Source of the DNA: a virus
Lineage: Duplodnaviria > Heunggongvirae > Uroviricota > Caudoviricetes
Direction: 5' to 3' (one strand)
IMG/VR virus record: IMGVR_UViG_2541047817_000001
Coordinates: 1 to 42,069 of that record
DNA: 42,069 nt
Part shown: piece by piece, positions 1,369 to 42,069 of the stretch
Layout: the number at the start of each line of letters is the position of its first letter
How positions within the stretch are numbered: position 1 is the stretch's first letter
Notes under the pieces: model-generated
The model's database searches: none
The model's input: the letters and a program-made list of their open reading frames with translations, nothing else
Told to the model about the DNA's origin: nothing
Made by a program: the position numbers and the translations under genes

Positions 1369-1444
1369 GCCGATATAGCTCAGTTGGTAGAGCAGCGCAT
1401 TCGTAATGCGAAGGTCGTAGGTTCGACTCCTATTATCGGCACCA
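1369..1444 (+). tRNA. thrW: tRNA-Thr (anticodon CGU)
   Basis: 76-nt sequence GCCGATATAGCTCAGTTGGTAGAGC...GGTTCGACTCCTATTATCGGCACCA folds as a cloverleaf with anticodon CGT at positions 34-36 and an encoded CCA end. It lies directly downstream of proA, as thrW does in E. coli. Confidence 0.93.
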
Positions 1445-1458
1445 TTTAAATCAATAAA

Positions 1459-4995: not shown

Positions 4996-5060
4996 AATAA
5001 GTCCTCACTATATAAAGATATTCAGTGATGAGATAAATAATCAGTTAATTAAAAACGATA

Positions 5061-5423
5061 TTAACGACCTGCTGCGCGGAGTTTTCCGTCAGGTTCACCG
5101 GCAAGAGTCAGTAACTGTCCCTGGTCTTCCTGCAGAATAGTCAGGCGACCACCGCGATTGACATACATCGGCGTTTCGGTGGTGTCTTCTTCGGAAATTT
5201 TCCCGCGGTTAGTCGGGCGAACATATGAGAGTTTGTGTTTGATTTTCACTCGGTTCTCATCAAACGGTTCGATTTCCAGGTTGAGCGAGACCTTACCTTT
5301 GGTTTTCGTGTTCATCACACCGGAAGCGACTTCACTGAGAACTGCGCCGATTTTGGTTTCAAATACGCCGCCGTCCAGCTCCCCGATAAATGCCTGCACA
5401 TCAGTACTGCGTTCGCTAGCCAT
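5061..5423 (-). CDS. Hypothetical phage protein (YfdP-like, 120 aa)
   Basis: Start chosen at the ATG at 5421-5423 (MASERSTDVQAFIGEL...), preceded by a strong Shine-Dalgarno GAGGAG. The ORF-track ORF runs further upstream to 5741 but that extension lacks a ribosome-binding site. Confidence 0.6.
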   Translation of the reverse strand: MASERSTDVQAFIGELDGGVFETKIGAVLSEVASGVMNTKTKGKVSLNLEIEPFDENRVKIKHKLSYVRPTNRGKISEEDTTETPMYVNRGGRLTILQEDQGQLLTLAGEPDGKLRAAGR

Positions 5424-5891
5424 TTTGCTGCTCCTCATCATATCGACCCTGCAAGGTCGGTTAGTTTCTCCACAAAACAGAGAAGAACACCTGCGGTGAC
5501 TGCCGCCCGGATGGATTGGGTTATGAGCCCGTCGTCCGGTGATGCTCTTCTCTGTTTTGTAAAAAGGACGGTACCAGCCGGAAGCAAGGGTACAAGCTGG
5601 TACCGCCAAGACTACACACAGCATAAAGTTGTGGTGCCGGGTGCCTCCCGGTGCCTGGCGAAGGTTGCACACCAGGCGGGTGGGTATCCACAGAAGGTCG
5701 ACTGTCAGCCTCAACCTTAACCCGCGTGCGCTGAGCCGCATTCACCACAACGCTAAGGATTCTCTCTGGTTGAAAATACTTAGCTGTTATGTGCCTGCTT
5801 TTAGCCACATCAGGCGAGGTGGACCTAGTTATTCCCCAACAACAAGGATTCGGTTAATCTGGTTATCCCCAACAACGTAAAAGGAAAAGAA
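5424..5891. other. GC-rich, highly structured non-coding region (several hairpins plus tandem direct repeats); candidate structured RNA or regulatory region
   Basis: No ORF with a ribosome-binding site. Perfect 14-bp inverted repeat CAAAACAGAGAAGA (5473-5486) / TCTTCTCTGTTTTG (5546-5559); 9-bp hairpin GGTACCAGC...GCTGGTACC (about 5570-5604); CCGGG...CCCGG and GCCTGG...CCAGGC stems (about 5636-5677); tandem direct repeats GTTAT(T)CCCCAACAAC at 5828-5843 and 5862-5876. Confidence 0.4.
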
Positions 5892-7735: not shown

Positions 7736-8305
7736 ATGAGGCTAATCGTGGGTAAGCATCACTGGAAAATAGAAAAACAGCCTGAGTGGTACGTGAAAGC
7801 TGTCAGAAAAACTATCGCGGCGTTGCCGGGTGGTTACGCTGAAGCGGCTGACTGGCTCGATGTAACAGAAAACGCTTTATTCAACCGCCTTCGTGCAGAT
7901 GGCGATCAGATTTTCCCGCTGGGATGGGCAATGGTTTTACAGCGTGCTGGTGGCACTCACTTCATTGCTGATGCTGTGGCGCAGTCTGCAAATGGCGTCT
8001 TTGTGTCTCTTCCTGACGTCGAGGATGTGGACAACGCCGATATTAACCAGCGTCTGCTGGAAGTCATTGAACAGATCGGCAGTTATTCAAAACAGATTCG
8101 TTCAGCAATCGAAGACGGTGTAGTGGAACCGCATGAGAAGACAGCAATTAACGACGAGCTGTATCTCTCAATTTCGAAGCTGCAGGAGCATGCAGCACTT
8201 GTCTACAAAATTTTTTGCATTTCAGAAAGTAATGACGCCCGCGAGTGTGCAGCTCCGGGCGTCGTGGCGTCGATTGCTTCTGGTTGTGGAGAAACTAACG
8301 CATGA
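7736..8305 (+). CDS. Putative CII/YdaT-like early regulatory protein (189 aa)
   Basis: Sits where cII sits in lambdoid phages, immediately after cro. Family assignment is tentative and the start codon is uncertain (a GTG at 7748 has a better ribosome-binding site). Confidence 0.4.
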
Positions 8306-8640
8306 ACAGTTTAACAACACACTACCGTCGCTCGCAACTGATTGCGCTTCCTGTACCGGGTGGAAAAGCGAAGGTGGAATATTGCTATGCAGTGAATGTA
8401 CCAGGTGACAGGGAAATTGTAACCCACAGCTTTGCAGAGTGGGCTGTGGGTGATTTCAACCGGCAGAAGGAGACAGTCCTTTGCGACAAGTTAACCGCTG
8501 GTTCAAAGATCACTACGGAGTGCCCGTCAGAGTCATTCGTTGGGAGCCGGAAACACAACGTGTTATCTACCTCCGCGAAGGCTATGAGCATGAGTGCTTC
8601 AGCCCGCTCGAACAGTTTCGTCGTAAATTCAGGGAAATAG
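8302..8640 (+). CDS. Hypothetical protein; coding frame ambiguous (possible frameshift or two overlapping small genes)
   Basis: The C-terminal part of the ORF-track ORF is low-complexity. A second frame from about 8481 (TTG, preceded by AAGGAG) to 8657 encodes a more protein-like sequence ([45 protein letters not shown]). Confidence 0.3.
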
Positions 8641-8649
8641 AGGTCGGTC

Positions 8650-9591
8650 ATGAGCACTAAATTAACCGGCTATGTATGGGATGGTTGCGCTGCATCAGGC
8701 ATGAAATTATCCAGCGTGGCAATTATGGCCCGCCTGGCTGATTTCAGTAATGACGAAGGTGTGTGCTGGCCATCAATTGAAACCATTGCCCGCCAGATTG
8801 GCGCGGGAATGAGTACCGTCAGAACGGCTATCGCACGGCTGGAAGCAGAAGGCTGGTTAACGCGTAAGGCGCGTCGCCAGGGTAACCGCAATGCGTCGAA
8901 TGTTTATCAGCTTAACGTTGCGAAGCTTCAGGCAGCGGCATTTTCTCAACTGTCAGATTCTGACCCGTCAAAATCTGACGCATCAAAATCTGACCCGTCA
9001 AAATTTGATGCGTCGAAATCTGGCAAAAAAGCGGGTTTTCACCCGTCAGAATCTGGCGGGGATCCGTCAGTAAAATCAAAACATGATCCGTCAGATAAAA
9101 AAACTTCTCGTCCGGACGCTTCGCAACCGGACACGCAGACGGCTGAACAGGAGTTTTTAACTCGCCATCCTGATGCGGTTGTATTCAGCCCTAAAAAGCG
9201 CCAGTGGGGAACGCAGGATGATTTGACCTGCGCACAGTGGCTCTGGAAAAAAATCATCGCCCTGTACGAGCAGGCCGCCGAATGTGACGGCGAGGTGGTT
9301 CGTCCCAAAGAACCGAACTGGACAGCCTGGGCAAACGAAATTCGCCTGATGTGTGTGCAGGATGGTCGTACTCACAAACAAATCTGCGAGATGTACAGCC
9401 GCGTCAGCCGCGATCCGTTCTGGTGCCGTAACGTGCTCAGCCCGTCGAAGCTGCGGGAAAAATGGGATGAGCTTTCCCTGCGCTTATCGCCGTCCGTCAG
9501 CACGTACACCGAAAAACGCGAAGACCCGTACTTCAAAGCCAGTTACGACAACGTGGACTACAGCCAGATCCCGGCAGGATTCAGGGGGTGA
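8650..9591 (+). CDS. Replication initiation protein (O-like, N-terminal HTH; 313 aa)
   Basis: N-terminal winged-helix/HTH (WPSIETIARQIGAGMSTVRTAIARLEAEGWL). Central low-complexity DPSKSDASKSD region encoded by iteron-like DNA repeats. Sits at the lambdoid O position. Confidence 0.7.
   Translation: MSTKLTGYVWDGCAASGMKLSSVAIMARLADFSNDEGVCWPSIETIARQIGAGMSTVRTAIARLEAEGWLTRKARRQGNRNASNVYQLNVAKLQAAAFSQLSDSDPSKSDASKSDPSKFDASKSGKKAGFHPSESGGDPSVKSKHDPSDKKTSRPDASQPDTQTAEQEFLTRHPDAVVFSPKKRQWGTQDDLTCAQWLWKKIIALYEQAAECDGEVVRPKEPNWTAWANEIRLMCVQDGRTHKQICEMYSRVSRDPFWCRNVLSPSKLREKWDELSLRLSPSVSTYTEKREDPYFKASYDNVDYSQIPAGFRG
8950..9100 (+). repeat. Iteron-like tandem direct repeats (putative phage replication origin) inside the replication gene
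   Basis: About five 15-bp repeats with core TCAAAATCTGAC (8950-9024), then degenerate CCGTCAG-containing repeats and an A-rich tract (GATAAAAAAA) near 9090-9100. Confidence 0.55.
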
Positions 9592-9593
9592 TC

Positions 9594-10082
9594 ATGAGTC
9601 TTTTGAATGAAGTTCAGAAATACATTGAAGCCCATCCGGGGTGTACTTCCGGAGACATTGCGGATGCTTTTGCAGGTTACTCACGGCAGCGCGTTCTGCA
9701 GTCAGCAAGCAAGTTACGTCAGAGTGGGCGTGTGGCTCACCGTTGTGAAGGAGATACACGCAGACATTTCCCTCGCCTGACTGAGAGAGCGCAGGAGCCG
9801 GAACCACAACCAGTTCGTGAAACCAGACCTGTGCGCAATTTCTATGTCGGCACTAACGATCCACGGGTAATTTTGTGCCTGACCCGCCAGGCTGAAGAAC
9901 TGGAGTCCAGGGGCTTATACCGTCGTGCTGCAACCGTGTGGATGGCGGCATTCCGTGAAAGCCACTCCCAGCCAGAACGAAACAATTTTCTGGAGCGTCG
10001 TGAGCGGTGCTTACGGAAAAGCAGCAAGCGCGCGGCATCGGGTGAAGAGTGGTATCTGTCAGGGAATTACGTGGGGGCTTAA
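9594..10082 (+). CDS. PerC-family-like transcriptional regulator (162 aa)
   Basis: ATG at 9594 preceded by GGGGG. The motif AEELESRGLYRRAATVWMAAF resembles the PerC signature; N-terminus looks like a winged helix. Confidence 0.55.
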   Translation: MSLLNEVQKYIEAHPGCTSGDIADAFAGYSRQRVLQSASKLRQSGRVAHRCEGDTRRHFPRLTERAQEPEPQPVRETRPVRNFYVGTNDPRVILCLTRQAEELESRGLYRRAATVWMAAFRESHSQPERNNFLERRERCLRKSSKRAASGEEWYLSGNYVGA

Positions 10083-10735
10083 TGAGTAATAAATATTGCC
10101 AGGCGCTGGCGGAACTGCGGAACAAACCAGCCCATGAACTGAAGGAAGTGGGCGATCAGTGGCGCACGCCGGATAACATTTTCTGGGGAATTAACACCCT
10201 GTTTGGCCCGTTTGTTCTGGATCTGTTCACTGATGGTGATAACGCCAAATGTGCTGCGTATTACACGGCGGAAGACAACGCGCTGGCGCATGACTGGTCA
10301 GAACGTCTTGTGGAGCTTAAAGGTGCTGCCTTTGGTAATCCCCCATACAGCCGCGCCAGTCAGCATGAGGGGCAATACATCACCGGCATGCGTTACATCA
10401 TGAAACATGCCAGTGCCATGCGTGATAAGGGTGGGCGCTATGTTTTCCTGATCAAAGCTGCCACCAGCGAAGTGTGGTGGCCGGAAGATGCGGACCATAT
10501 TGCTTTTATTCGCGGGCGTATTGGTTTTGAACTGCCTGCCTGGTTTATCCCGAAAGATGAGAAGCAGGTGCCGACAGGCGCTTTCTTCGCTGGTGCTATT
10601 GCTGTTTTCGACAAGACCTGGAAGGGACCGGCAATCAGCTACATCGGGCGCGATGAACTTGAGGCATGTGGTGAGGCGTTTCTGGTGCAGGTTCGCCAGC
10701 AGGCGGAAAAACTGGTCAGGGAGATGGCGGCATGA
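10082..10735 (+). CDS. Phage DNA N6-adenine methyltransferase (Dam-like, orphan)
   Basis: Contains the NPPY catalytic motif (AFGNPPYSRA). ATG at 10082 overlaps the upstream stop. No adjacent restriction endonuclease. Confidence 0.8.
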   Translation: MSNKYCQALAELRNKPAHELKEVGDQWRTPDNIFWGINTLFGPFVLDLFTDGDNAKCAAYYTAEDNALAHDWSERLVELKGAAFGNPPYSRASQHEGQYITGMRYIMKHASAMRDKGGRYVFLIKAATSEVWWPEDADHIAFIRGRIGFELPAWFIPKDEKQVPTGAFFAGAIAVFDKTWKGPAISYIGRDELEACGEAFLVQVRQQAEKLVREMAA

Positions 10736-11058
10736 CGACGTTAACTCAATGCCAGCAGCAGGTGCTGGATATGCTGATTTCTTACCAGAAAGAACGTGGC
10801 TTCCCGCCAACCAATCAGGAGGTGGCAACCATGCTGGGATACCGTTCAGTGAATGCAGCGGTGGAACATCTTCGCGCACTGGAGAAAAAAGGCGTCATCA
10901 CGATAAAGCGTGGCGTGGCCCGGGGTATCACTCTTCATACCGCGGTGAAGGACGACGACAGCGAGGCGGTCGGGATTATCCGCTCACTGCTTGCCGGTGA
11001 GGAAAACGCCAGGCTGCGTGCAACCCACTGGTTACATGAGAGAGGCCTGAAAGTATGA
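10732..11058 (+). CDS. LexA N-terminal DNA-binding-domain protein (108 aa; no peptidase domain)
   Basis: LTQCQQQVLDMLISYQKERGFPPTNQEVATMLGYRSVNAAVEHLRALEKKGVI parallels the LexA N-terminal winged-helix domain. The ORF ends before any S24 peptidase region. Confidence 0.7.
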   Translation: MTTLTQCQQQVLDMLISYQKERGFPPTNQEVATMLGYRSVNAAVEHLRALEKKGVITIKRGVARGITLHTAVKDDDSEAVGIIRSLLAGEENARLRATHWLHERGLKV

Positions 11059-11444
11059 AGCTGATCCTGCCTTTCCCGCCCAGCGTGAACACGTACTGGC
11101 GACACCCCAACAAAGGGGCATTTGCTGGTAAGAGCCTGATAAGCGCGGCGGGGCGAAAATTTCAGAGCGCGGCGTGCGCAGCAATAGTTGAGCAGTTACG
11201 TCGTCTGCCAAAACCAACGTCGGCACCTGCTTCAGTGGAGATCGTGTTGTTTCCTCCGGATAACCGGATCCGCGATCTGGACAACTATAACAAGGCGCTG
11301 TTTGACGCGTTGACCCACGCGGGTGTGTGGGAAGACGACAGACAGGTGAAAAGAATGCTGGTGGAGTGGGGACCGGTTATCCCGAAAGGGAAGGTCGAGA
11401 TCACCATCAGTAAGTACGAGAAAACGGCGGGTGCAGCCGCCTGA
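11055..11444 (+). CDS. rusA: Holliday junction resolvase RusA
   Basis: 129-aa protein with the RusA-type motifs (PPSVNTYW, DLDNYNKALFDALT). Typical lambdoid position between the replication genes and Q. Confidence 0.85.
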   Translation: MKLILPFPPSVNTYWRHPNKGAFAGKSLISAAGRKFQSAACAAIVEQLRRLPKPTSAPASVEIVLFPPDNRIRDLDNYNKALFDALTHAGVWEDDRQVKRMLVEWGPVIPKGKVEITISKYEKTAGAAA

Positions 11445-11463
11445 TCAAGAGGAGAAACGAAGT

Positions 11464-12261
11464 ATGAATAATCTGATGGTCATTGATGGTATTGAAGTTC
11501 GTCGTGATGCTTATGGTCGTTACAGCCTGAACGATCTGCACAGGGCTGCCGGTTCTCTGGATAAGCATAAGCCTGCATTCTGGCTCCGCAATGAGCAAAC
11601 TGAACGTTTAATAAGCGAGTTGCAGATTTGCAACTCGGTCAATATAGAGCCAGTTAACGTTATTCGTGGCGGAAATAACCAGGGGACGTATGTCTGCAAA
11701 GAACTGGTGTATGCCTATGCAATGTGGATAAGCCCGTCATTCCATCTGAAGGTGATCCGTACTTTCGACATGGTAACCAGCGCACCGGAAAAATTATCCG
11801 GACAGGCTGCTGACAAGATGCAGGCTGGTGTGATTCTGCTGGACTTTATGCGCCGGGAATTAAACCTGTCTAACTCTTCAGTGCTTGGTGCCTGTCAGAA
11901 ACTCCAGGAGGCTGTTGGCTTACCGAATCTGGCACCGCGCTATGCCATTGATGCTCCTGCTGACGCGCCTGATGGCTCAAGCCGCCCCACGCTGTCACTG
12001 AGTGCACTGCTGAAGCAGTATGGTATCCGCCTGACAGCTAATCAGGCATATCACCAGATGGCGAAGCTGGGGATCGTTGAACAACGTGAACGATACAGCC
12101 GCACTGCGATTAACAACATCAAAAAATTCTGGTCGCTGACGGCGAAAGGCTGCATGTTCGGCAAGAACATCACCAGTCCCGCAAATCCGCGCGAGACGCA
12201 GCCGCATTTCTTCGAATCCCGGTTCCCTGAGCTGTTAAAGCTGCTCGATACCGTTCATTGA
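11464..12261 (+). CDS. KilA-N domain protein (antirepressor-like)
   Basis: ATG at 11464. N-terminal KilA-N-like segment (MNNLMVIDGIEVRRDAYGRYSLNDLHRAAG...KPAFWL). Confidence 0.65.
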   Translation: MNNLMVIDGIEVRRDAYGRYSLNDLHRAAGSLDKHKPAFWLRNEQTERLISELQICNSVNIEPVNVIRGGNNQGTYVCKELVYAYAMWISPSFHLKVIRTFDMVTSAPEKLSGQAADKMQAGVILLDFMRRELNLSNSSVLGACQKLQEAVGLPNLAPRYAIDAPADAPDGSSRPTLSLSALLKQYGIRLTANQAYHQMAKLGIVEQRERYSRTAINNIKKFWSLTAKGCMFGKNITSPANPRETQPHFFESRFPELLKLLDTVH

Positions 12262-12262
12262 G

Positions 12263-13258
12263 GTGACCGTGAGAGCGCTACTGATCCCTGAAATTGCCCC
12301 GCGTATGGGGATCGTATTGTTCAGGCCAGGTTCAGAGCTGATGCCCCTGTTTATGCAGGGGCGTGTCCTGCTGGAGCCTGAGCCGGAACGTTATTCATCT
12401 TTCGCCAGTGGTGCCGTTCCGGCGGCATCACAACCGCTGGCGGATGATCCTGCCGTTCGGGCCGTGTTCCGTAATGAGGCAGTGATTCGTCGTGCTGGTG
12501 GGTTGGAATGTCTTGAAAGCTGGTTACTTCGTGAAAAAGGCTGCCAGTGGCCTCATTCCGACTGGCACAGCGAGAACATGACCACAATGCGACACGCGCC
12601 GGGTGCAATCCGTCTGTGCTGGCACTGCGATAATCAGTTACGTGATCAGTTCACGGAGCGGCTGGAATCAATGGCAACGGATAACTGTGCCCGTTGGGTG
12701 TTGTCTGTAGTCCGTCGGGATCTCGATTTTGATGATAACCATGCCGTGACAATGCCGGAACTGTGCTGGTGGCTGATTCGTAATGACCTGGCGGATGCCT
12801 TACCTGAAAGCGCAGCCCGTAAGGCGCTGAGATTACCGAAACCTGTTGTGCCGTCTGTCACCCGGGAAAGTGACCTTGTGCCTTCGGTTCCTGCCACCAG
12901 CATCATCCTGGATAAAGCGAAAAAGGTGCTGGCGCTGAAAGTGGATCCGGAGTCGCCGGAGTCTTTTATGTTACGCCCAAAAAGCCGCCGCTGGGTTAAT
13001 GAAAAGTACACGCGCTGGGTTAAGACACAGCCGTGTGCATGTTGTGGAAAGCCTGCTGATGATCCCCACCATCTGATAGGCCACGGTCAGGGTGGAATGG
13101 GTACAAAAGCGCATGACCTCTTTGTGTTGCCTTTGTGCAGAAAGCATCACGACGAGCTGCATGCGGATACCGTGGCATTTGAAGAGAAGTATGGCTCTCA
13201 GCTGGAGCTGATATTTCGTTTTATCGATCGTGCGCTGGCAATTGGCGTACTGGCCTGA
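12263..13258 (+). CDS. DUF968-family phage protein (YdfU-like, 331 aa)
   Basis: Cys/His-rich C-terminus (CACCGKPADDPHHLIGHGQGGMGTKAHD...CRKHHDELH) typical of DUF968 proteins found upstream of Q in lambdoid prophages. Non-ATG start in the ORF track. Confidence 0.65.
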   Translation: MTVRALLIPEIAPRMGIVLFRPGSELMPLFMQGRVLLEPEPERYSSFASGAVPAASQPLADDPAVRAVFRNEAVIRRAGGLECLESWLLREKGCQWPHSDWHSENMTTMRHAPGAIRLCWHCDNQLRDQFTERLESMATDNCARWVLSVVRRDLDFDDNHAVTMPELCWWLIRNDLADALPESAARKALRLPKPVVPSVTRESDLVPSVPATSIILDKAKKVLALKVDPESPESFMLRPKSRRWVNEKYTRWVKTQPCACCGKPADDPHHLIGHGQGGMGTKAHDLFVLPLCRKHHDELHADTVAFEEKYGSQLELIFRFIDRALAIGVLA

Positions 13259-13644: not shown

Positions 13645-14529
13645 TTATATTGGGCGCTTTGAATTCGATTTAAAGCGTCTTCCACTTATTCCAGAAACCC
13701 AAATGTCTTCCTCAAGAAAGTCAAGAAGGGCTTTTATTTCTTTTTTTGATGAAGGCATGACAATTTTCTCAACACCGCCAACTATTATGGTTTGTAAGGG
13801 GAAATTAACTTTAGCAGCTTCGGATTTAAACTTTGACATATTTTGGGGTGTTAGCATCCCAGTCTGATTTATTAGTGTTACTTTATTTCTTATCACTGTA
13901 TCTGCAACGGATTTTAGATCAAAACCTTGGGGAGTAGAAAATATACTAAGTTGACTAAATGCATTAAGTTCTTGGTCAGTAGCAGCAGAAAAATAGGACG
14001 ACATGTCAAAAATGCTTCTTAGATTAAAGAAACTCTTAAATCGTATTGTATCATTGATAATTATTGCAACTAGTTTATCATCAACATTAAAACCGATGCT
14101 ATTAGCTTTACTAAAGGTAGTTTTGCTTGCAAAAAGCTTTCCAAAGAATGATTTTGAGGTATCTAAGATTTGTTTTTTGTTGAAAGTTTGTAGTGCAATA
14201 ATATTGGGGTTTGCTGGCGCGTCAACACCAACAAATAATGCTTTAATATAACCAATATCAATTTGGCTAGGATCCCAGATAGGCACGGCGGTAGGCCTAT
14301 TGACTGCGTCAATCAGGCGTGCAGAATCAGTAAAGTTTTGTATTTCAAAACACTCACTATGTTTTGGTGTATAACCGGCATAGAATGGTATCATATTGTT
14401 ATGATGACTTTCAAAATATTGACGCTGTTGTTGGAAAATGGCCGTAACAGAAGTACTTGCTGTTGCATCAAGTTCGACTCTAACAATTCTCGTTGCAATT
14501 GTATTATCTATTACTGCAAAAAGTGCCAT
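13645..14529 (-). CDS. Hypothetical protein (294 aa); second gene of the AT-rich antisense island; candidate defence component
   Basis: ORF with no recognisable motif, visibly AT-rich, on the opposite strand to the late operon, 5 nt downstream of the membrane-protein gene. Confidence 0.6.
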   Translation of the reverse strand: MALFAVIDNTIATRIVRVELDATASTSVTAIFQQQRQYFESHHNNMIPFYAGYTPKHSECFEIQNFTDSARLIDAVNRPTAVPIWDPSQIDIGYIKALFVGVDAPANPNIIALQTFNKKQILDTSKSFFGKLFASKTTFSKANSIGFNVDDKLVAIIINDTIRFKSFFNLRSIFDMSSYFSAATDQELNAFSQLSIFSTPQGFDLKSVADTVIRNKVTLINQTGMLTPQNMSKFKSEAAKVNFPLQTIIVGGVEKIVMPSSKKEIKALLDFLEEDIWVSGISGRRFKSNSKRPI

Positions 14530-14534
14530 GGTTA

Positions 14535-15056
14535 TTATCCTTTAACATGTAGAAATGTGTAGTCTGTTAATTGAATAACTGTAAATTTGATATCTTTAAT
14601 ATCAGTAATAACTGATTTAGAAATCAATACAAAACCTACGCCGGTGTCATCTTCAGCTTCGTAAAATTTATAACCGATAAGTGACAATACTGGGTTAAAG
14701 TTATAGTTCTCGGAAAAGCTGATGTAAAATAACAATGATAAATAAAAGAATAACGCATATGCTTTATTTTCAGCAATAGAATCTGTTCCTAGGAGAGGGA
14801 ATAAATAGCTTAAGAAATAATTAGTTACTTCTTTGTTAGCGGGAGAAACTGAACTAATATTTTTTGTCAGAGGTTCAAGTTGTTTCTCAGCATATTGAAT
14901 CAGGCCTATTGCTAATAACCAACTTGCTATGCCAACGCATAAGCTATATTGCATCAGCCAAACCGTATCTTTTACATATCCAATAAAAAATAGAGTTGCG
15001 CAAACAGGTGCAATTGAGCTGGCTGTTAATAATAAGCGTGCTAATTTGTTCATCAT
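14535..15056 (-). CDS. Integral membrane protein (173 aa, about 4 TM helices); first gene of the AT-rich antisense island
   Basis: Hydrophobic segments at roughly residues 8-28, 36-56, 80-91 and 100-118. AAGGA ribosome-binding site ahead of the ATG at 15054-15056. Visibly AT-rich. Confidence 0.6.
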   Translation of the reverse strand: MMNKLARLLLTASSIAPVCATLFFIGYVKDTVWLMQYSLCVGIASWLLAIGLIQYAEKQLEPLTKNISSVSPANKEVTNYFLSYLFPLLGTDSIAENKAYALFFYLSLLFYISFSENYNFNPVLSLIGYKFYEAEDDTGVGFVLISKSVITDIKDIKFTVIQLTDYTFLHVKG

Positions 15057-16639: not shown

Positions 16640-17248
16640 AAGAGGCAGATTGATCGTGTTTTCGAAGTGTTATACCACGCCCGTTCTGTTAATTTGGCAA
16701 AATCTGTTCTGATGCAATGAGTATCGAAAGATTTATTGGACTGGTTGCTTTGGTTATCACTGTTATCGCTGGAGTTGTTGGCCTAGGGCGTATCCGTGGC
16801 ACTAGTAAAAGAAGAGGTTAAAACTGCTCTGTTATACACTGAAGTTAACGCAGCGGCTAAGCACTCAGCAGCAGGACACCGTGTAGAGGCAACGGAAGAG
16901 GCCAGAAATATACAGCAGACTATTAACCATATTCCTGGTGACTCTGTTGAGCGCGGTATGCATAAGAAATACAAACGTACAATTTGAAGTGGTATATTTT
17001 TCTTGTTAGTAGATGAATATAATATACCACACAGAATACGATATAATTATTGCTCATGCTTACCTAAATATGAAAAACAATAAAGTTATAAGTAGACAAG
17101 TGTTTTGTTACTTTTAATAATTGATGTGATGTATATATTAAGATTGAAAAATTTAATCATTCTTTCCACATATAAATTAAGTGGTTCCCTTAGCTTGTCA
17201 TTTTTGATGATAAGTGAGAGAATATGAACATTATATGATGGAGATAAT

Positions 17249-17560
17249 ATGTCAAACATAAAAATCAAACAAGCTATTGAAAAGATTGCGGAGTTCAGAG
17301 CAGCATCTGCTGCGATGGCTGATGCTCACATGGTTCTTATTACAGAGCTATTGAACTCAATTGAGGATATCCGCAAAAACTCTGGTGATAATCTCTCTGA
17401 GTTTGAAAAAGGACAGGTTGCTCTCTACATAAAAATTAGCCCAGTTGTGAAAAATGGAATTTCGAGTATTGAAAAATATAATGAGTCTTTAAGTTCAGAC
17501 TATGTTGAGGCTATGAACTCCTTATCTAAAATTGCGGGAGGGAATTCAAATGTCGATTGA
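17249..17560 (+). CDS. Hypothetical soluble helical protein (103 aa); gene 1 of the AT-rich three-gene cassette
   Basis: ATG at 17249 preceded by GGAG. Visibly AT-rich. No recognisable motif. Confidence 0.55.
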   Translation: MSNIKIKQAIEKIAEFRAASAAMADAHMVLITELLNSIEDIRKNSGDNLSEFEKGQVALYIKISPVVKNGISSIEKYNESLSSDYVEAMNSLSKIAGGNSNVD

Positions 17561-17936
17561 AGATGTTGGAAGCATCCTTGATAGATTAAAAGTAGCCAGG
17601 ATCGAAAATAAAAAAATTGAAGAGTCAGCTGGAAAAGCAGAGGAAAATGCTGTTAACTCTAAGCATACTGATGGTAAAACACGAAGCGCCTTAACTATTA
17701 CGTTTCTCTGGTTCTTTTTTTGCCTTCTTATTTTTAGCTGTCTTTTTGTTCTTTGGTATAATAATTCTGTTGTGAATTGGGCTTTAGAGTTAAAGAGCAA
17801 AGGTGTTGATGATTACGTTCAATATTTAAAGCCACTCGAGCTGGAAAAGGTATTGTCAATAATGATTACTGCCCTTGGTACTTCATTAGGATTTATAATT
17901 GGGTATTATTTTAAGGATAAAGAAAATCATTCTTAA
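17550..17936 (+). CDS. Small membrane protein (128 aa, 2 TM); gene 2 of the AT-rich three-gene cassette
   Basis: ATG at 17550 preceded by GGGAGGG; overlaps the end of gene 1, suggesting translational coupling. TM segments ALTITFLWFFFCLLIFSCLFVLWY and VLSIMITALGTSLGFIIGYYF. Confidence 0.55.
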   Translation: MSIEDVGSILDRLKVARIENKKIEESAGKAEENAVNSKHTDGKTRSALTITFLWFFFCLLIFSCLFVLWYNNSVVNWALELKSKGVDDYVQYLKPLELEKVLSIMITALGTSLGFIIGYYFKDKENHS

Positions 17937-17981
17937 TATAGAGTTATCTCTAAAGATAACGAATTTTAATAGGAGGGCAGA

Positions 17982-18284
17982 ATGTCTGAACTGAATTATG
18001 AAGCAATAGGTCGCTGCAAAATCCTTAATGAAAAGATCAAAGATCTTCATGCTGAACGAATGAAAGCTATTGGTGATTTACGTACTGCTGTCTATGCCCT
18101 TCATCAGAAAGGGAATGTAAACCTCATCCCACCAGAAATTGTTGAATTCAACCCCCAATCGCTTACATCCCTTGTAGAGAAGGTTGGTCACTATGATGGT
18201 GAGCTGATGCGAGCTGTACATGAGTACAACAACTGGTGTGTAGAAGCAGGCGAGAAACCCGTAAAACTTATAAAGCTAGACTGA
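17982..18284 (+). CDS. Hypothetical protein (100 aa); gene 3 of the AT-rich three-gene cassette
   Basis: ATG at 17982 preceded by AGGAGGG. Visibly AT-rich. No recognisable motif. Confidence 0.55.
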   Translation: MSELNYEAIGRCKILNEKIKDLHAERMKAIGDLRTAVYALHQKGNVNLIPPEIVEFNPQSLTSLVEKVGHYDGELMRAVHEYNNWCVEAGEKPVKLIKLD

Positions 18285-18309
18285 AACAACAAATTTATGC
18301 AAATCATTA

Positions 18310-23147: not shown

Positions 23148-24353
23148 ATGGCGGTTGATATTAAAGATGTCGAACAGGTCGCGCAGGAGCTGCAGCAGAA
23201 GTTTGACGACTTCAAAGCAAAGAACGACAAGCGCGTGGATGCGATTGAGCAGGAAAAAGGCAAGCTTGCCGGGCAGGTGGAAACCCTGAACGGGAAACTC
23301 AGCGAGCTGGAAAACCTCAAAAGCGATCTTGAAAAAGAGCTGCTTGAGCTGAAACGTCCGGCAGGTGGTGCGCAAAATAAACTGGCCACCGAGCATAAAG
23401 AAGCGTTTGTGGGCTTCCTGCGTAAAGGCCGTGAAGATGGTCTGCGCGATCTGGAGCGCAAGGCATTACAGGTGGGCACCGATGAAGACGGCGGCTATGC
23501 CGTGCCGGAAGCACTGGATCGCAACATTCTCACCCTGCTGAAAGATGAAGTGGTGATGCGCCAGGAAGCCACGGTGATCACCGTTGGTGGTTCCGAATAC
23601 AAAAAACTGGTGAATCTGGGCGGCACGGATTCCGGATGGGTTGGCGAGACTGACGCGCGCTCCCAGACTGCCACCTCAAAACTGGGCCTGATTGAACCTT
23701 TCATGGGGGAAATCTACGGTAACCCGCAGGCCACCCAGAAAATGCTGGATGATGCCTTTTTCAACGTGGAAGCATGGATCAACAGCGAGCTGGCAACCGA
23801 ATTTGCCGAACAGGAAGAAATTGCCTTTACCACCGGCGATGGTACCAAGAAGCCGAAAGGGTTCCTGGCGTATGAATCCACGGATGAAACCGATAAGGTC
23901 CGGGCGTTCGGCAAACTTCAGCATATTGTATCCGGCGACGCGACGGCGGTGACCGCAGACGCCATTATCAAACTGATTTACACGCTGCGTAAGGCACACC
24001 GCACAGGCGCGAAGTTCATGATGAACAACAACAGCCTGTTTGCCATCCGTCTGCTGAAAGACAGCGAGGGTAACTATCTGTGGCGTCCGGGGCTGGAGCT
24101 GGGGCAGCCGTCCTCTCTGGCGGGTTACGGTATCGCTGAAAACGAACAGATGCCGGATATCGCCGCTGATGCGAAAGCCATTGCATTTGGTAACTTCAAA
24201 CGGGGTTACACCATCGTTGACCGTATCGGCACCCGCATTCTGCGTGACCCGTACACCAATAAACCGTTTGTCGGTTTTTATACCACCAAACGCACCGGCG
24301 GCATGCTGGTCGATTCGCAGGCCATCAAACTGCTGAAGATTGCAGTGGCGTAA
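23148..24353 (+). CDS. Major capsid protein (HK97 fold)
   Basis: 401-aa ORF with a coiled-coil N-terminal delta domain (MAVDIKDVEQVAQELQQKFDDFKAKNDKRVDAIEQEKGKLAGQVETLN) and a capsid body. GAGAAATACG ribosome-binding context. Confidence 0.9.
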   Translation: MAVDIKDVEQVAQELQQKFDDFKAKNDKRVDAIEQEKGKLAGQVETLNGKLSELENLKSDLEKELLELKRPAGGAQNKLATEHKEAFVGFLRKGREDGLRDLERKALQVGTDEDGGYAVPEALDRNILTLLKDEVVMRQEATVITVGGSEYKKLVNLGGTDSGWVGETDARSQTATSKLGLIEPFMGEIYGNPQATQKMLDDAFFNVEAWINSELATEFAEQEEIAFTTGDGTKKPKGFLAYESTDETDKVRAFGKLQHIVSGDATAVTADAIIKLIYTLRKAHRTGAKFMMNNNSLFAIRLLKDSEGNYLWRPGLELGQPSSLAGYGIAENEQMPDIAADAKAIAFGNFKRGYTIVDRIGTRILRDPYTNKPFVGFYTTKRTGGMLVDSQAIKLLKIAVA

Positions 24354-37621: not shown

Positions 37622-38010
37622 TATCCCAGTACCAGAAAATCACCTGTTTCAGTTGCGGCTGAAGTTGATATAGTCCTTGCAGCACAAATGGCCTTTAATT
37701 CTGTTTTTGTTAGTTCTGACACTCCCCAGGAATTAATACCTATTGGGCCTGTGGATACTGCGGTTTTTTCAGCAATAAATGCCATAAATGCAGAATTTGG
37801 AAAAGCAATAGGATAACTTCCTGTTGCAACACCAGTTTTACTATCAGAAGGTCCGATTCTTCCCCATTGGATAATAAAAGACTTCCCCTCTATAACAGGG
37901 ATTTTTATCCAGCCAGATGATGATAAAGAGCCACTAATCGCAGGCAATTTGGCCGCTTCTCCCAAACCAACGTTTATGAAAATGCAGAAATAACGAGAAA
38001 ATGGCATCAT
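37618..38010 (-). CDS. Alternative tail fibre variable C-terminal segment (silent in the current orientation)
   Basis: Its N-terminal region (NVGLGEAAKLP) parallels the tail fibre junction ([11 protein letters not shown]); the ORF starts at the right recombination site. Confidence 0.65.
   Translation of the reverse strand: MMPFSRYFCIFINVGLGEAAKLPAISGSLSSSGWIKIPVIEGKSFIIQWGRIGPSDSKTGVATGSYPIAFPNSAFMAFIAEKTAVSTGPIGINSWGVSELTKTELKAICAARTISTSAATETGDFLVLGY
37957..37982. repeat. Right hix/gix-like recombination site of the invertible segment
   Basis: TTCTCCCAAACC-AA-CGTTTATGAAAA, in inverted orientation relative to the left site. Confidence 0.6.
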
Positions 38011-38036
38011 TCCTGCTTTTGTCAGAGGGAGCTACC

Positions 38037-38228
38037 ATGCTTATTGGCTATGTTTTCGTATCAACAAATGACCAGAAAATCGATCTACAACGTAATGCGT
38101 TGAACTGTGCAGGATGCGAGCTGATTTTTGAAGACAAGATAAGCAGTACAAAGTCCGAGAGCCTAGGGCTGACACTGCTGTTCTTGATGCAAATTAAAGG
38201 ATTTAATAGTGAGTTGTGGCCTTACTAA
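38037..38228 (+). pseudogene. Truncated serine DNA invertase (Pin/Gin/Hin family), N-terminal roughly 40 codons only
   Basis: MLIGYVFVSTNDQKIDLQRNALNCAGCELIFEDK matches the invertase N-terminus including the catalytic Ser motif (VSTNDQ); after about residue 41 the sequence diverges and stops at 63 aa. A full invertase is about 185-190 aa. Confidence 0.75.
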
Positions 38229-38261
38229 TGTAAGGCCGCTATAATCATTTTATTAATTGCA

Positions 38262-40151
38262 TTAATCGTGTTTTGGCCATACTTTCAATGCAATTTCCCC
38301 CAACTTTTTACCCCGCTCCAGGATTTCACCCTCATCCCATTTATCCTTAAGTATAAGTGGTATGTTCAGTCGTAGATTGGTGTGGACGATGAGAGCATCA
38401 CGTTTTTTCAGAAATACAGCATTCTGAACAGAACGGTTTACGCTAAGGTTAAGCAAAGTTAGATTTCCCAACGTAGCTATCGCTTGTTGCCGTTTCCTTA
38501 CCAGTAGCTGCTCAGGGGTAAGATCTGTTCCAGACAGAACAATTTGGTTCAATACCGTTGCATCTGAATTTGTCACCATATGACCATTTTCGAGAGGCCA
38601 ACAGGAATACCAACTTTGAGGCATAAGATGATCGATATCGAGATTGGAAAGATTTGGAACATCAGGCTTCTCTGTCTTCACTTGGCGACAAAGTTCTCTT
38701 TCAAGTTCCGTTAACATTGAGCGCATTTTCGGTGCGTCGAGCCTGCCAGGATAAAGTGGAGCATTGATGCAAGCATTGAGAAATTCTGAGTCACCAGGCC
38801 AACGTGAGGCTTCGCCATTTAAGCTATTGAGGATATTACGTAACTCAACACTGGAAATTTCCGTTTTAGACAAGTGCCGCAATACATTCATAAATACATT
38901 GTTGTAATTCTTTGGCGTCAGGCCACATACGGCTCTTCGTACTACGTAGGAGACAAGATCATTATACATGGCTGCTTTCTCATCATCGGCGATATTAGCT
39001 ATCGAAATGAACAAAGCAAGCGGATAAAGTGTCGTCACATCATAGGCTGCGATGCGATGTCCAAAGTGTGAGATGGGGGTTGTGCCAAAACCACCAACTA
39101 ATTCTTTATATTGTGATGCATATTGTTTGAGGCGCTTTACTTGCAGATCAGCTCGTTGTGAAGGCAAGTCCTTACTTACATAATCACGATACTCATTGTA
39201 AAGACGAGACAGATCAATTTCACGTTGCCTTTCTGATTGCAATGTCGCATGCACTAGCCACTCCATGCGTGGTTTATTAATACGTCCACGGCGTTGCCTT
39301 TCCGACCAGTATGTATCTTCAAAGCTCTTCCACTCATTTTCATATAATTCAATAGCATTAATATTTTCATGCTCAGCGCACATAAAGATGTAGTTGCGAA
39401 TAAGATCCGTGGCATGAAGTTCCGCCCCTCGGCCATTTAATGTTTCAAAAATTATTTGGGCATCATCTTCAGCTTCGAGAAATATGCTTACCAGTTTCAG
39501 ATCCGTCAAGACAGCCTCAATTAGTGCTACAGCATTTTCATGTGGTGAGTACTTTTCTATTTTAATCCATTTTATAAAGGCTTCAGTAAAAAACCATAAT
39601 GCCTCTAGTGACGGCGGGTGGTTGAAATGTTTACGTAACGTACCATGTTGCGTGAAACTATCAGAAAATACATCACGGAGATCGTCAATATTTTCAACAT
39701 TAAAACTTTGAATAAAATGAGTTTGGTCTCGAAAAGTTGGCCACAGTTTGAAGCATTCTACCTTTTTATTTCGCATAGTTGCTTCGTTTGTATTTTTCAA
39801 GCAAGTCAATACTAACCCTTCCAAATCAGAAAGGCCTGTAGCACGCAATGATAATCGAATGGATGCCAGAATATATTGAAGAGTGGTTAAACGTTGCTGG
39901 CCGTCAATAATATGTATGGTATCTACACCTAACAAGCTGTTTTTGAGTTGAGGTTCCAGCACCACCGCGCCAAGGAAATGGGGAGTTGGTTTTGTTCCCA
40001 AAAGTCGGCTATGTGCTTTTTCGAAGATATCCTCCAGCAAAGCTGACCATTGGTTTTGTTGCGTCCATACGTAGGCACGTTGATAGAATGGAACACGATA
40101 TTGTCGTTGATTTTGGAAAAGTTGCTGGATGGTTAGCGTTTCGGATTTCAT
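38262..40151 (-). CDS. GmrSD-like type IV (modification-dependent) restriction endonuclease, fused DUF262 + DUF1524 (629 aa)
   Basis: N-terminal DUF262/ParB-like motif IIDGQQRLTTLQ (DGQQR); C-terminal DUF1524 His-Me finger-like motifs (DIDHLMPQSW, LGNLTLLNLSVNRS). Confidence 0.8.
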   Translation of the reverse strand: MKSETLTIQQLFQNQRQYRVPFYQRAYVWTQQNQWSALLEDIFEKAHSRLLGTKPTPHFLGAVVLEPQLKNSLLGVDTIHIIDGQQRLTTLQYILASIRLSLRATGLSDLEGLVLTCLKNTNEATMRNKKVECFKLWPTFRDQTHFIQSFNVENIDDLRDVFSDSFTQHGTLRKHFNHPPSLEALWFFTEAFIKWIKIEKYSPHENAVALIEAVLTDLKLVSIFLEAEDDAQIIFETLNGRGAELHATDLIRNYIFMCAEHENINAIELYENEWKSFEDTYWSERQRRGRINKPRMEWLVHATLQSERQREIDLSRLYNEYRDYVSKDLPSQRADLQVKRLKQYASQYKELVGGFGTTPISHFGHRIAAYDVTTLYPLALFISIANIADDEKAAMYNDLVSYVVRRAVCGLTPKNYNNVFMNVLRHLSKTEISSVELRNILNSLNGEASRWPGDSEFLNACINAPLYPGRLDAPKMRSMLTELERELCRQVKTEKPDVPNLSNLDIDHLMPQSWYSCWPLENGHMVTNSDATVLNQIVLSGTDLTPEQLLVRKRQQAIATLGNLTLLNLSVNRSVQNAVFLKKRDALIVHTNLRLNIPLILKDKWDEGEILERGKKLGEIALKVWPKHD

Positions 40152-40736
40152 TGTTTACCTATAAGTGACATTCCACAAGAGTAAGAAATTAATCTGAGTC
40201 AGAATAATCATTTTTATGTAGTCATGATACAGTGTATTTGTTGCTGGTGAAGTAAAAACGAGAAATCCCGCTTTTGAATGCTGACGTGCTACGGTTTCAT
40301 TGGATATTCTCTTTTGTCTGTTCTCCATTGCGTCGGTGTTTTTTCGAGATTGTTAGCACATTGTTGCTGCTGTTTTTTTATCCAAGCGCTGCTAAATCAT
40401 TGTAGATGGCACTATCGGGTATTGAAGCTGCAGACATGTCGTATACAATAGTCAGCTGCGGCTGGCTGGTGAACTTCCGATAGTGCTAGTATTGAATTAT
40501 GTCAAGCCGTTATCGATTTTACGTATTTTTTGTATGAGAGGATTTGCACCTCCTCCCACCGCTCCTCCATGACTTTACGCCACTGTCTCTAGGGCTGCTA
40601 AGTGCCAGGAACAGACATTGGTGGTATGCAGGGTCAGAGGGGAATAAAAAACTTATTATATTGATCAAGATGGGGCTATTCTTCGCAACTTAAGCCGATA
40701 TAATACAGATCAAGTGTGCTCTTTTAGGGTTCCATA

Positions 40737-41672
40737 TTGATTAACAGAAAATTAATCAGGGAGATAAGCTTGAGCGAATCCACTATAATCCTTGCTAAAG
40801 AATCAATTTCAGATGGACGTGAAGTAAACGAGATAAATGAAATAAGACCCCTTAATAATGAGGAAATTGAAGTGTATGATACACAAAAAAATATACTTAT
40901 GGAGTTTGTGAATGATTTTGCCTTAGTAGAATATGTAAGATTGAACTATGAGTCACTAATGGAACTTCTGGATGAAACGGTTAAAAAAGTAGCCGAAGAA
41001 CCTTCTTTTATTGGTTCATATCCCTTCAAAACCTTCAAATTCTTTTTAAATACAAGAATACTGAACTATATGATGTCAGTGAAAACTTTACTTGACCATA
41101 TGGAAACCAGTATTAACAGGAGGTATGGGGCTAATTCAACGGAATTTGTCGAGTTTAAAACGCTGACGGGAAATGAATTTGATAGCAAGTTTTCATATAG
41201 ATTCATGTATAAGCTCAGAAATTTTGTTCAGCATTGTGGAATGCCACCACTTTCGTACACGATATCAAAATCACTTGATGAAACCAGTAGTACTTTAATT
41301 GTAGAGTTAATCGTATATTTCATGAGAGATGAATTGATTCGTGGATTTTCTAAGTGGGGGAGTCAGGTAAAGACTGACCTGACACAGATGGATGAATCTT
41401 TCCCAATAATGCCGATTTTTAATGAGCACATCAATTCTATTTTCAAAGTGTATATTCTATTCAATGAAAAATATCACATCACAAAAGCTTTAAAAGCAAA
41501 AGAATTCATAATAAACTTCATTGGAGAGAGAGAGGATTATATTGATGATGAATACATTATCGCAGAACTAAAAAATACACAAACAGGTTTGAGTATAAAC
41601 AAAAAAACCATTCCTACATCAGCGCTTGAGAAAATATCCGATTTTTACAGAATAAAAGAATACCTATTTTAG
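40737..41672 (+). CDS. AT-rich hypothetical protein (311 aa) with an Rx4H HEPN-like motif; candidate Abi-like effector
   Basis: Visibly AT-rich ORF; motif RNFVQH (residues 161-166) fits the HEPN Rx4-6H signature. Start is a non-ATG (TTG) in the ORF track, so the true N-terminus is uncertain. Confidence 0.5.
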   Translation: MINRKLIREISLSESTIILAKESISDGREVNEINEIRPLNNEEIEVYDTQKNILMEFVNDFALVEYVRLNYESLMELLDETVKKVAEEPSFIGSYPFKTFKFFLNTRILNYMMSVKTLLDHMETSINRRYGANSTEFVEFKTLTGNEFDSKFSYRFMYKLRNFVQHCGMPPLSYTISKSLDETSSTLIVELIVYFMRDELIRGFSKWGSQVKTDLTQMDESFPIMPIFNEHINSIFKVYILFNEKYHITKALKAKEFIINFIGEREDYIDDEYIIAELKNTQTGLSINKKTIPTSALEKISDFYRIKEYLF

Positions 41673-42069
41673 CAATGGACATGGCTTAGAGAAACTAACA
41701 CATTTTTACAGAGAAAGCCGCGGATATCACTGGTTGCGCTAACATATTTTTCGAACTATGTGTAATTGTATTCGCTGCCTGAGACTGAGTATCGGCAGGT
41801 CACCAGCACGTTTTCCATTATAGATGGCGTGACCTGCTCCCCACTGATTAATACGCCTCAATGCCAGTCATGTTGTTGAGGCTGCCAATGTCCGCATCTC
41901 GCTCATAACACATTCACTACAGTTATGGTAGAAGGTATGCATGCTGGGTGGGGAAAGTATGAAGGAAAAGAAGACTGCTGCGCCGTTTGTTGTCACATTT
42001 ATCTTCATTGGCTATGCAAGTCGTAATACAAGGTGGGACAAAACTGAGACACATAAGGCCTCGCAATGA

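Follow-up and report, generated by a model that had tools for sequence, protein, structure and literature searches.

How did a gene for a type IV restriction enzyme come to lie beside a broken tail-fibre invertase in a virus of the Caudoviricetes, and is the enzyme a novel one? The window, by which we mean the whole 42,069-nucleotide stretch that was analysed (IMG/VR record IMGVR_UViG_2541047817_000001), contains both genes together with an invertible tail-fibre segment and variable cargo (Table 1). The account that we consider highly probable is that the restriction gene is an allele of gmrSD, that its acquisition replaced part of the invertase gene pinE in an ancestor, and that the product of this exchange later spread among prophages.

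Table 1 Position and basis of the features discussed in the text
Feature	Position	Strand	Basis and remarks
Intact invertible tail-fibre segment	36058-37975	.	Inverted repeats, Pfam, in-silico flip
tfa	36574-37176	+	Inside invertible segment
Alternative tfa	37148-37621	-	Inside invertible segment
Alternative fibre C-terminus	37618-38010	-	Listed within invertible segment
Pin/Gin-type serine invertase remnant (pinE stub), codons 1-46/49 of 184	38037-38183	+	blastn, tblastn, 7-locus alignment, Pfam
gmrSD cassette, ~2.25 kb, in place of pinE codons ~47-181	38173-40429	.	Alignment to L019; composition
GC-rich hairpin, GGCCTTAC-loop-GTAAGGCC, between convergent stub and gmrSD	38220-38239	.	3'-region folding
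gmrSD, single-chain type IV (modification-dependent) restriction endonuclease, 629 aa	38262-40151	-	Pfam, PADLOC, identity, dN/dS
gmrSD upstream region, part of cassette, presumed promoter	40152-40429	-	Conserved together with gmrSD in L003, L004, L005, L009 and L011
Retained pinE terminator hairpin	40427-40466	+	Alignment with L019 (intact pinE), L011 and L004
Variable cargo slot, from gmrSD block to conserved attR-proximal end (41885-42069)	40609-41884	.	Comparison of relatives
300-aa protein of unknown function in the variable slot	40770-41672	+	Slot comparison

An allele of a known restriction enzyme

The first-pass annotation had described a 629-aa minus-strand reading frame that combines the DGQQR motif of DUF262 with DUF1524, and had assigned it to a GmrSD-like type IV enzyme. 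The frame is present as described, and a Pfam search recovers both domains: GmrSD_N/DUF262 (PF03235) at residues 8-256 (E 6.4e-34) and GmrSD_C/DUF1524 (PF07510) at residues 451-619 (E 1.6e-18). The PADLOC model mREase_IV aligns over profile positions 1-629 of 629 with 1481 bits. DGQQR occupies residues 83-87, within IIDGQQRLTT, in the DUF262/ParB-like NTPase domain, and the His-Me/HNH nuclease residues D507, H508 and N522 are unsubstituted. Among the sequences given in Suppl. Fig. S1 of He et al. 2015, the window protein is 97.0% identical to Eco94GmrSD (E. coli STEC_94C, WP_000834395) and to the prototype CT596 GmrSD (Bair and Black 2007; He et al. 2015), with 19 substitutions and no gaps across all 629 residues. 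These two enzymes are likewise 629 aa long and share DGQQR, E271/E273 and D507-H508-N522 with the window protein; its D507-H508-LMP block and N522, N528 and N535 stand at the positions that they occupy in Eco94GmrSD. Identity to the UTI89 enzyme (UTI89_C2960), which is of equal length, is 93.5%, and 25 of the 41 substitutions that separate the two lie within the first 133 residues. The assignment to the type IV GmrSD family is therefore upheld by domains, catalytic residues and near-identity to a biochemically characterised enzyme, and only the qualifier 'like' has to go: judged by its sequence, the window gene is an ordinary allele of the known GmrSD. The enzyme, its biochemistry and its location in an SfII-like prophage, after the tail-fibre genes and beside the invertase, are already published. 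The genes for Eco94GmrSD and CT596 GmrSD occupy such a place, directly after tail-fibre genes and invertase in an SfII-like myovirus-type prophage, and these neighbours have been noted for CT596 gmrSD (PMC4619093). No close copies were found in deposited phage genomes, where the best tblastn identity was below 40% and mostly 24-30%.

Small sequence differences matter in this family because the UTI89 enzyme, about 93% identical, is inactive in vitro; strain UTI89 does not restrict T4, and IPI*, the T4 inhibitor to which gmrSD alleles are described as differing in sensitivity, reportedly has no effect on its enzyme. He et al. 2015 (PMC4437046) describe Eco94GmrSD as an ATP-stimulated nuclease of 5hmC and glc-5hmC DNA, with a roughly 10^6-fold restriction of T4 delta-ip1; alanine mutations at D507, H508, N522 or E271/E273 killed that enzyme, and all of these residues are kept in the window protein. 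Could the window allele nonetheless have lost or altered its activity, and be a silent passenger or an enzyme with another phage range or inhibitor sensitivity? Nine substitutions are specific to it (H47, L51, D109, K200, Y201, H204, T280, R285 and G608), and K280T falls where the Eco94 double mutant E278A/K280A, inactive or weakly active, lost most of its activity. About half of the 19 substitutions relative to Eco94GmrSD are shared with the UTI89 allele, and gmrSD alleles form a mosaic over their first 135 codons (dS 0.69, against 0.11 in the remainder). On the other hand, several intact alleles, of both the window type and the UTI89 type, also have T280, no catalytic or NTP-binding motif is disrupted, and 367 contigs carry a protein sequence identical to that of the window. 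The frame is unbroken in seven of the seven loci compared and dN/dS is 0.12-0.16: gmrSD is under purifying selection, and the ratio indicates selection for a working GmrSD protein. A lost or altered activity is, in our judgement, unlikely.

Replacement of the invertase interior

The truncated Pin/Gin-like invertase reported beside gmrSD is real. The remnant was compared by blastn and tblastn with intact pinE of three relatives (L007, L008 and L019) and aligned across seven stub-bearing loci; it matches Pfam Resolvase (E 1.9e-05), and its counterpart in a near-identical locus is a pseudogene in the RefSeq annotation. Its open frame (38001-38228, plus strand) has its true start at ATG 38037 and continues into cassette DNA as far as the stop at 38228, and what makes a full-length serine invertase, namely about 184 aa, a complete catalytic domain (R8, S10) and a C-terminal HTH, is absent. 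The stub is decaying, and independently so in different loci: next to other substitutions in the window, R8 has become F both there and in L003, and 1-nt deletions have occurred in L009 and L011.

Comparison with relatives that retain an intact invertase had been proposed as the way to find the junctions, and alignment to one of them, L019, locates both. Window positions 37956-38172 align to 8152-8368 of that locus, and 40430-40619 to 8792-8979, immediately past its pinE stop at 8787, which places the left junction at 38172-38183 and the right one at about 40417-40430. The cassette between them comprises a hairpin, gmrSD and about 280 bp upstream of gmrSD, and it has a GC content of about 40-42%, lower than the 55-58% of the tail genes. 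By tblastn the 3' part of pinE is found nowhere in the window, which rules out a simple insertion that split the gene. As far as the alignment can tell, the cassette is a replacement of the 3' three-quarters of pinE, either in one step or by insertion and then deletion, two courses with the same outcome that are indistinguishable here. The first-pass annotation was thus right that the arrival of the defence gene destroyed the invertase, the pinE 5' end and terminator flanking the cassette when set against L019, and wrong in calling it an insertion. Its distance of 34 bp between the loss of invertase homology and the 3' end of gmrSD also needs correction: pinE homology ends 79-90 bp from the gmrSD stop, and 33-34 bp is the spacing from the stop codon of the stub frame (38228) to that of gmrSD (38262).

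The 86-nt region at the 3' ends of the two convergent frames (38185-38270) has a folding energy of -18.8 kcal/mol (z = -4.0 relative to shuffled sequences), and the hairpin within it is likely the terminator for gmrSD; a simple terminator scan made no call for it. Upstream of gmrSD no promoter was found above chance, a promoter-like site at 40251-40224 being at chance level. Past the retained pinE terminator hairpin, the conserved post-pinE sequence runs on to 40619 and is 82% identical to the phage lambda b-region (24160-24352).

The upstream region also holds an inverted 19-nt copy of a pinE stop/terminator arm (40283-40301). It prompted a model in which an ancestral co-directional pin-gmrSD pair underwent inversion from inside pin; this was rejected because the predicted minus-strand pin codons 184-47 from 40302 onward are absent.

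One old junction in many prophages

Of 5426 complete E. coli genomes, 306 have gmrSD at a nucleotide identity of at least 90%, and a 401-bp probe across the junction is covered to 80% or more in 287; the stub-gmrSD layout is shared by about 5-5.5% of complete E. coli genomes. It is found in prophages at four chromosomal sites, the UTI89-like loci (for instance L009, at ssrA) included, and the loci at thrW, ssrA and icd share the junction to the nucleotide with one another and with a second type of phage. The annotation had implied a truncating event at the present locus, but the 306 gene-bearing and 287 junction-bearing genomes point to one old ancestral event, inherited by roughly 290-300 complete genomes.

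The truncation of pinE might nevertheless have nothing to do with gmrSD, if a later deletion struck a prophage in which gmrSD already lay downstream. Other cargo does truncate invertases independently, as in phage vB_EcoM-611R5, where a different gene cuts pinE at about codon 87, and the inverted 19-nt arm hints at an earlier, different arrangement with gmrSD placed after a pin gene. Among the loci examined, however, no gmrSD lies beside an intact pinE, 287 of about 300 genomes with a near-full-length gmrSD give the junction-probe coverage stated above, and the pinE pieces flank the cassette exactly, for which a single replacement is the simplest account. We hold a separate deletion to be improbable.

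The likeness to e14 of E. coli K-12 that had been pointed out is apt, because an e14-site prophage (L010) has stub-gmrSD where K-12 e14 has pinE-mcrA; in strain 181.1 stub-gmrSD stands at icd, the same site as e14. Both the window and e14 have a tail module of ymfQ, stf, tfa, invertible segment and pin, with a type IV gene after the invertase. In e14 pinE is intact and mcrA co-directional, whereas in the window pinE is broken, as originally stated, with 46-49 codons left, and gmrSD is convergent with it. The two restriction enzymes are unrelated: McrA, an HNH enzyme, acts on 5mC/5hmC and not on glc-5hmC. Of the enzymes proposed for alignment, characterised GmrSD is close, but BrxU and SspE, which have the same two-domain DUF262-DUF1524 architecture, are only distant. 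The SspE models of PADLOC match only the N-terminal ~100 residues (E 1e-14 to 5e-11), and the window is without BREX or Ssp/Dnd gene context. A sequence search of solved structures returned no BrxU or SspE chain at E <= 0.01; all matches were distant, the best being the DUF262 protein 9jfl (E 1.4e-06, N-terminal domain only). DUF262 is a member of the ParB/Srx superfamily (PMC4619093), but a ParB-like partition or DNA-binding protein in place of a nuclease, named at the outset as what would refute the assignment, is ruled out for practical purposes by the complete C-terminal His-Me domain with D507/H508/N522, by 97% identity to an enzyme of demonstrated endonuclease activity and by the location in a prophage cargo slot without parA or parS context.

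In the account that we favour, an allele of gmrSD acquired by ancestral replacement, a lysogen would make the 72-kDa GmrSD from gmrSD's own promoter. Judging from its near-identity to Eco94GmrSD, the N-terminal DUF262/ParB-like domain (DGQQR) would bind and hydrolyse NTP, and the C-terminal DUF1524 His-Me finger (D507-H508-N522) would cleave DNA that contains 5-hydroxymethylcytosine or glucosyl-5hmC, so that T-even phages without a matching inhibitor such as T4 IPI* would be excluded. The low-GC cassette of ~2.25 kb would have replaced the 3' three-quarters of pinE once, in an e14/SfV-type tail module; of pinE, a decaying 46-49-codon stub and the terminator survive, one at each end of the cassette. 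Stub-gmrSD would then have moved between prophages at several attachment sites, and mosaic patterns suggest that the probable route was homologous recombination via the conserved invertase/hix and post-pin flanks.

Tail-fibre segment and cargo slot

The invertible segment has the hallmarks of the Gin/Pin type: inverted 20-bp crossover sites at its bounds (36058-36077 and 37956-37975, 95% complementary), alternative fibre C-termini and tfa genes, and an in-frame fusion after a flip in silico, which yields a 213-aa fibre. Its genes match the Pfam families Caudo_TAP, Gp53-like_C and Collar. The flipped left junction was found in one complete genome only, UPEC_U013, which has an intact pinE.

The slot that follows the gmrSD block is occupied in relatives by a retron I-C RT-Toprim (L003), a type IIG/ISP R-M enzyme (L004) or other genes (L009 and L011), and is deleted in L005. 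Taken more broadly, the position behind the invertase houses McrA, PD-T4-3, Ppl, retron or type IIG cargo in relatives. In the window it holds a gene for a confidently folded 300-aa protein with an invariant KLRNxxQHCGMP (Rx4H) motif, which belongs to no known family and has no Foldseek match in the PDB and BFVD libraries searched. It is a tentative idea, which we think less probable than its opposite, that the post-invertase position of e14/SfV-type modules is an unrecognised defence hotspot and the 300-aa protein, perhaps a HEPN-like RNase, a new anti-phage defence encoded by a single gene. McrA, GmrSD, PD-T4-3, Ppl, retron I-C and type IIG R-M cargo would be swapped there via the conserved pin/hix and post-pin flanks, an exchange that may sometimes cost the invertase. 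The invertase is present in ~1,800 E. coli genomes. No description of an invertase-adjacent defence hotspot was found in the literature searched.

Significance

The presence of gmrSD matters little in itself, since enzyme, biochemistry and place in a prophage had all been described before. What is added is modest: the boundaries of the cassette are mapped, the interior of pinE appears to have been replaced once, and the resulting unit is found at several attachment sites. The stub-gmrSD junction provides a clean marker for following the gmrSD allele series, and the uncharacterised genes of the cargo slot, among them that for the 300-aa protein, are good candidates for new defence functions. 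In lysogens of stub-gmrSD prophages, the prophage's own invertase can no longer drive the tail-fibre switch.

Identity and setting of the restriction enzyme

The product of gmrSD carries GmrSD_N (PF03235, residues 8-256, E 6.4e-34) and GmrSD_C (PF07510, residues 451-619, E 1.6e-18) in Pfam, and the PADLOC model mREase_IV matches it end to end (1481 bits). The DUF262/DUF1524 pair with DGQQR and His-Me motifs reported by the first-pass annotation is thereby borne out, DGQQR occupying residues 83-87 and the C-terminal motif reading D507-H508-L-M-P ... N522. Aligned without gaps to the reference sequences of Supplementary Fig. S1 in He et al. 2015 (PMC4437046), the protein is 97.0% identical (19 substitutions) to both Eco94GmrSD and the resequenced prototype from CT596, and 93.5% identical (41 substitutions) to UTI89 GmrSD. 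The catalytic residues of Eco94GmrSD, D507, H508 and N522 (PMC4437046), are kept together with E271/E273, all of them inactivating when mutated in that enzyme; the single notable change, K280T, also occurs in several other intact alleles. This near-identity and the intact catalytic residues rule out a ParB-like partition protein. BrxU and SspE share the domain architecture alone, their sequences being distant. Judged by its sequence, the gene is gmrSD itself, the known enzyme: the type IV assignment stands, and the qualifier in 'GmrSD-like' falls away.

Near-identity to characterised relatives predicts an endonuclease stimulated by NTP, with 5hmC and glucosyl-5hmC DNA as its substrates; T-even phages would be excluded unless they inject an inhibitor that matches the enzyme, for example IPI* of T4. 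The UTI89 enzyme (93% identical) behaves differently (PMC4437046), and the window allele may have a phage range and inhibitor sensitivity of its own. Both the identity of gmrSD and its setting in the genome are already published: Eco94GmrSD, of 629 aa, is encoded in an SfII-like prophage, where its gene comes directly after those for the tail fibre (He et al. 2015, PMC4437046), and UTI89 GmrSD was likewise assigned to an SfII-like prophage beside tail-fibre genes (PMC4437046).

Beyond thrW lies a lambdoid prophage of ~40.7 kb with a contractile tail module of the e14/SfV type. Since the att core is repeated beyond the window end, gmrSD belongs to the prophage and occupies the attR-proximal end of it. 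GC content is 55-58% in the tail genes and drops to ~40% across gmrSD and ~36% beyond it. The same prophage also encodes a complete Kiwa system. The genes lie in an island of low GC (~33-36%) that separates the Q antiterminator from the lysis genes and is missing from the otherwise similar LH13-b prophage. A second low-GC island, with the lysis genes on one side and the terminase region on the other, is not common to LH13-b either; its small ORFs have no Pfam or PADLOC match.

Features of the window and defence cargo of related loci
Locus	Feature	Coordinates	Strand	Remarks
Window	proA	1-1254
Window	thrW	1369-1444
Window	att core	1399-1454		second copy ~90 bp past right end
Window	Kiwa system	13645-15056	-	KwaB 13645-14529 (PADLOC 497 bits), KwaA 14535-15056 (277 bits)
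Window	second low-GC island	~16640-18300		~32% GC
Window	small ORFs in second island	17249-17560, 17532-17936, 17982-18284
Window	crossover sites	36058-36077, 37956-37975		inverted, 20 bp
Window	stub-bearing ORF	38001-38228	+	true invertase start ATG 38037
Window	hairpin	38220-38239		cassette
Window	gmrSD	38262-40151	-	cassette; 629 aa
Window	DNA upstream of gmrSD			cassette; ~280 bp
Window	19-nt inverted copy	40283-40301
Window	pinE terminator hairpin	~40427-40466
Window	variable slot	40609-41884		between gmrSD block and conserved attR-proximal end
Window	300-aa protein	40770-41672	+	in variable slot adjoining gmrSD
e14 (L020)	McrA			directly after intact pinE
L007	PD-T4-3 (464 bits) + type II R-M system	4697-5470		directly after intact pinE
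L019	Ppl (356 bits) + 165-aa unknown	9130-12365		directly after intact pinE
L003	retron I-C RT-Toprim	8152-9828		variable slot beyond stub-gmrSD
L004	type IIG/ISP R-M enzyme	7924-11100		variable slot beyond stub-gmrSD

Replacement of the pinE interior

From its true start the stub encodes a serine invertase N-terminus (MLIGYVFVSTNDQ...; Pfam Resolvase, E 1.9e-05), and in a near-identical E. coli locus RefSeq annotates the stretch as a pseudogene, a truncated 'recombinase family protein'. Homology to intact pinE (comparison loci L007, L008 and L019) runs from the crossover site through codons 1-46 and stops at 38172, with weak further homology up to 38183; the stop codon of gmrSD is therefore 79-90 bp away from the breakpoint. 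The 34 bp given earlier is the distance to the fortuitous stop of the stub ORF. The decisive comparator for the right junction is UPEC_U013 (L019), whose pinE is intact and whose invertible segment is 94-98% identical to that of the window in flipped orientation. Window 40430-40619 aligns to L019 8792-8979, starting right after the pinE stop at 8787, and the pinE terminator hairpin is still recognisable. Comparison with intact-invertase relatives thus located both junctions, at 38172-38183 and ~40417-40430, and these alignments together show ~2.25 kb (38173 to ~40429) in place of pinE codons ~47-181. No other piece of pin occurs anywhere in the window, and simple insertion or mere adjacency is rejected. 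That the arrival of gmrSD broke the invertase is supported; the gene was not inserted beside the invertase, the junctions indicating replacement within it.

Upstream of gmrSD, the pinE stop codon and left terminator arm recur as an exact, inverted 19-nt copy (cf. L007 4632-4650), ~130 bp to the left of where the pinE terminator is retained in direct orientation. An older pin-gmrSD arrangement may have left this trace; a simple inversion model fails. The post-pinE sequence (40426-40619) shares 82% identity with a stretch of the phage lambda b region that lies between ea47 and ea31 (lambda 24160-24352). In strain KMi012 a similar sequence, which overlaps ydfV, matches window ~40156-40620 at 77% identity. 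The post-pinE sequence has the look of a conserved boundary between modules, within the accessory region of lambdoid phages that extends from the tail fibre to att.

The tail-fibre invertible segment itself is intact, and flipping it in silico yields an in-frame alternative fibre of 213 aa. With pinE truncated, the prophage has lost the means of flipping this segment with an invertase of its own. The sole flipped segment found is that of UPEC_U013, in a prophage with intact pinE.

Inheritance and selection

The proposed resemblance to e14, with the invertase broken here, is confirmed by the K-12 order ymfQ-stf-tfa-tfa-stf'-pinE-mcrA-icd' and by strain 181.1 (L010), which carries stub-gmrSD at the icd site where e14 resides. 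In e14 pinE is intact, and, unlike in e14, gmrSD and the invertase stub of the window are convergent. The broken invertase is no peculiarity of this prophage. The junction is the same nucleotide for nucleotide at thrW (L004, L005, L011), ssrA (L009) and icd (L010), and in L003, a prophage of different baseplate type; the gmrSD alleles of these loci differ by up to ~7% from that of the window. Among 5426 complete E. coli genomes, 306 carry gmrSD (at least 90% nucleotide identity), and a probe of stub, junction and gene end is at least 80% covered in 287. No close copy was found in the deposited phage genomes searched. Stub-gmrSD is evidently one old event, ancient, shared and widely inherited.

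The stub has decayed separately in different lineages (R8F in the window and L003; 1-nt deletions in L009 and L011) and behaves as an unselected pseudogene adjoining a selected gene. Between the window gmrSD and UTI89-type alleles dN/dS is 0.12-0.16, and the gene is therefore under purifying selection. Over codons 1-135 dS is 0.69 vs 0.11 in the remainder (~six times), which points to allelic mosaicism, not positive selection, and indicates recombination between alleles inside the N-terminal domain.

Defence cargo around the invertase

Such novelty as the locus has lies in the neighbourhood of gmrSD. In relatives, known defence systems of the region lie right after intact pinE or in the variable slot past the stub-gmrSD block. 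Several of these cargos, like McrA and GmrSD, target T-even phages. In phage vB_EcoM-611R5 (L006 5090-6254, ON470588.1) pinE is clipped at codon ~87, leaving a 104-aa ORF, and a 281-aa cargo gene of unknown function replaces the remaining pinE and the cargo gene present in its relative L008; this is a second, independent truncation, by a different cargo gene.

In the window the variable slot encodes a 300-aa protein that belongs to none of the families in Pfam, NCBIfam or PADLOC; its sole family assignment is to a PHROG of unknown function. Its ~50 homologues are scattered, mainly in Enterobacterales, with more distant metagenomic ones besides, and those examined occupy prophage cargo positions, for example in Morganella and Klebsiella. 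The AlphaFold (AF2) model is confident (pLDDT 92), and Foldseek found no relative of it in PDB or BFVD. The protein carries an invariant motif KLRNxxQHCGMP (Rx4H, HEPN-like) and is a candidate new defence gene. The putative hotspot and this neighbour of gmrSD are the leads worth pursuing.
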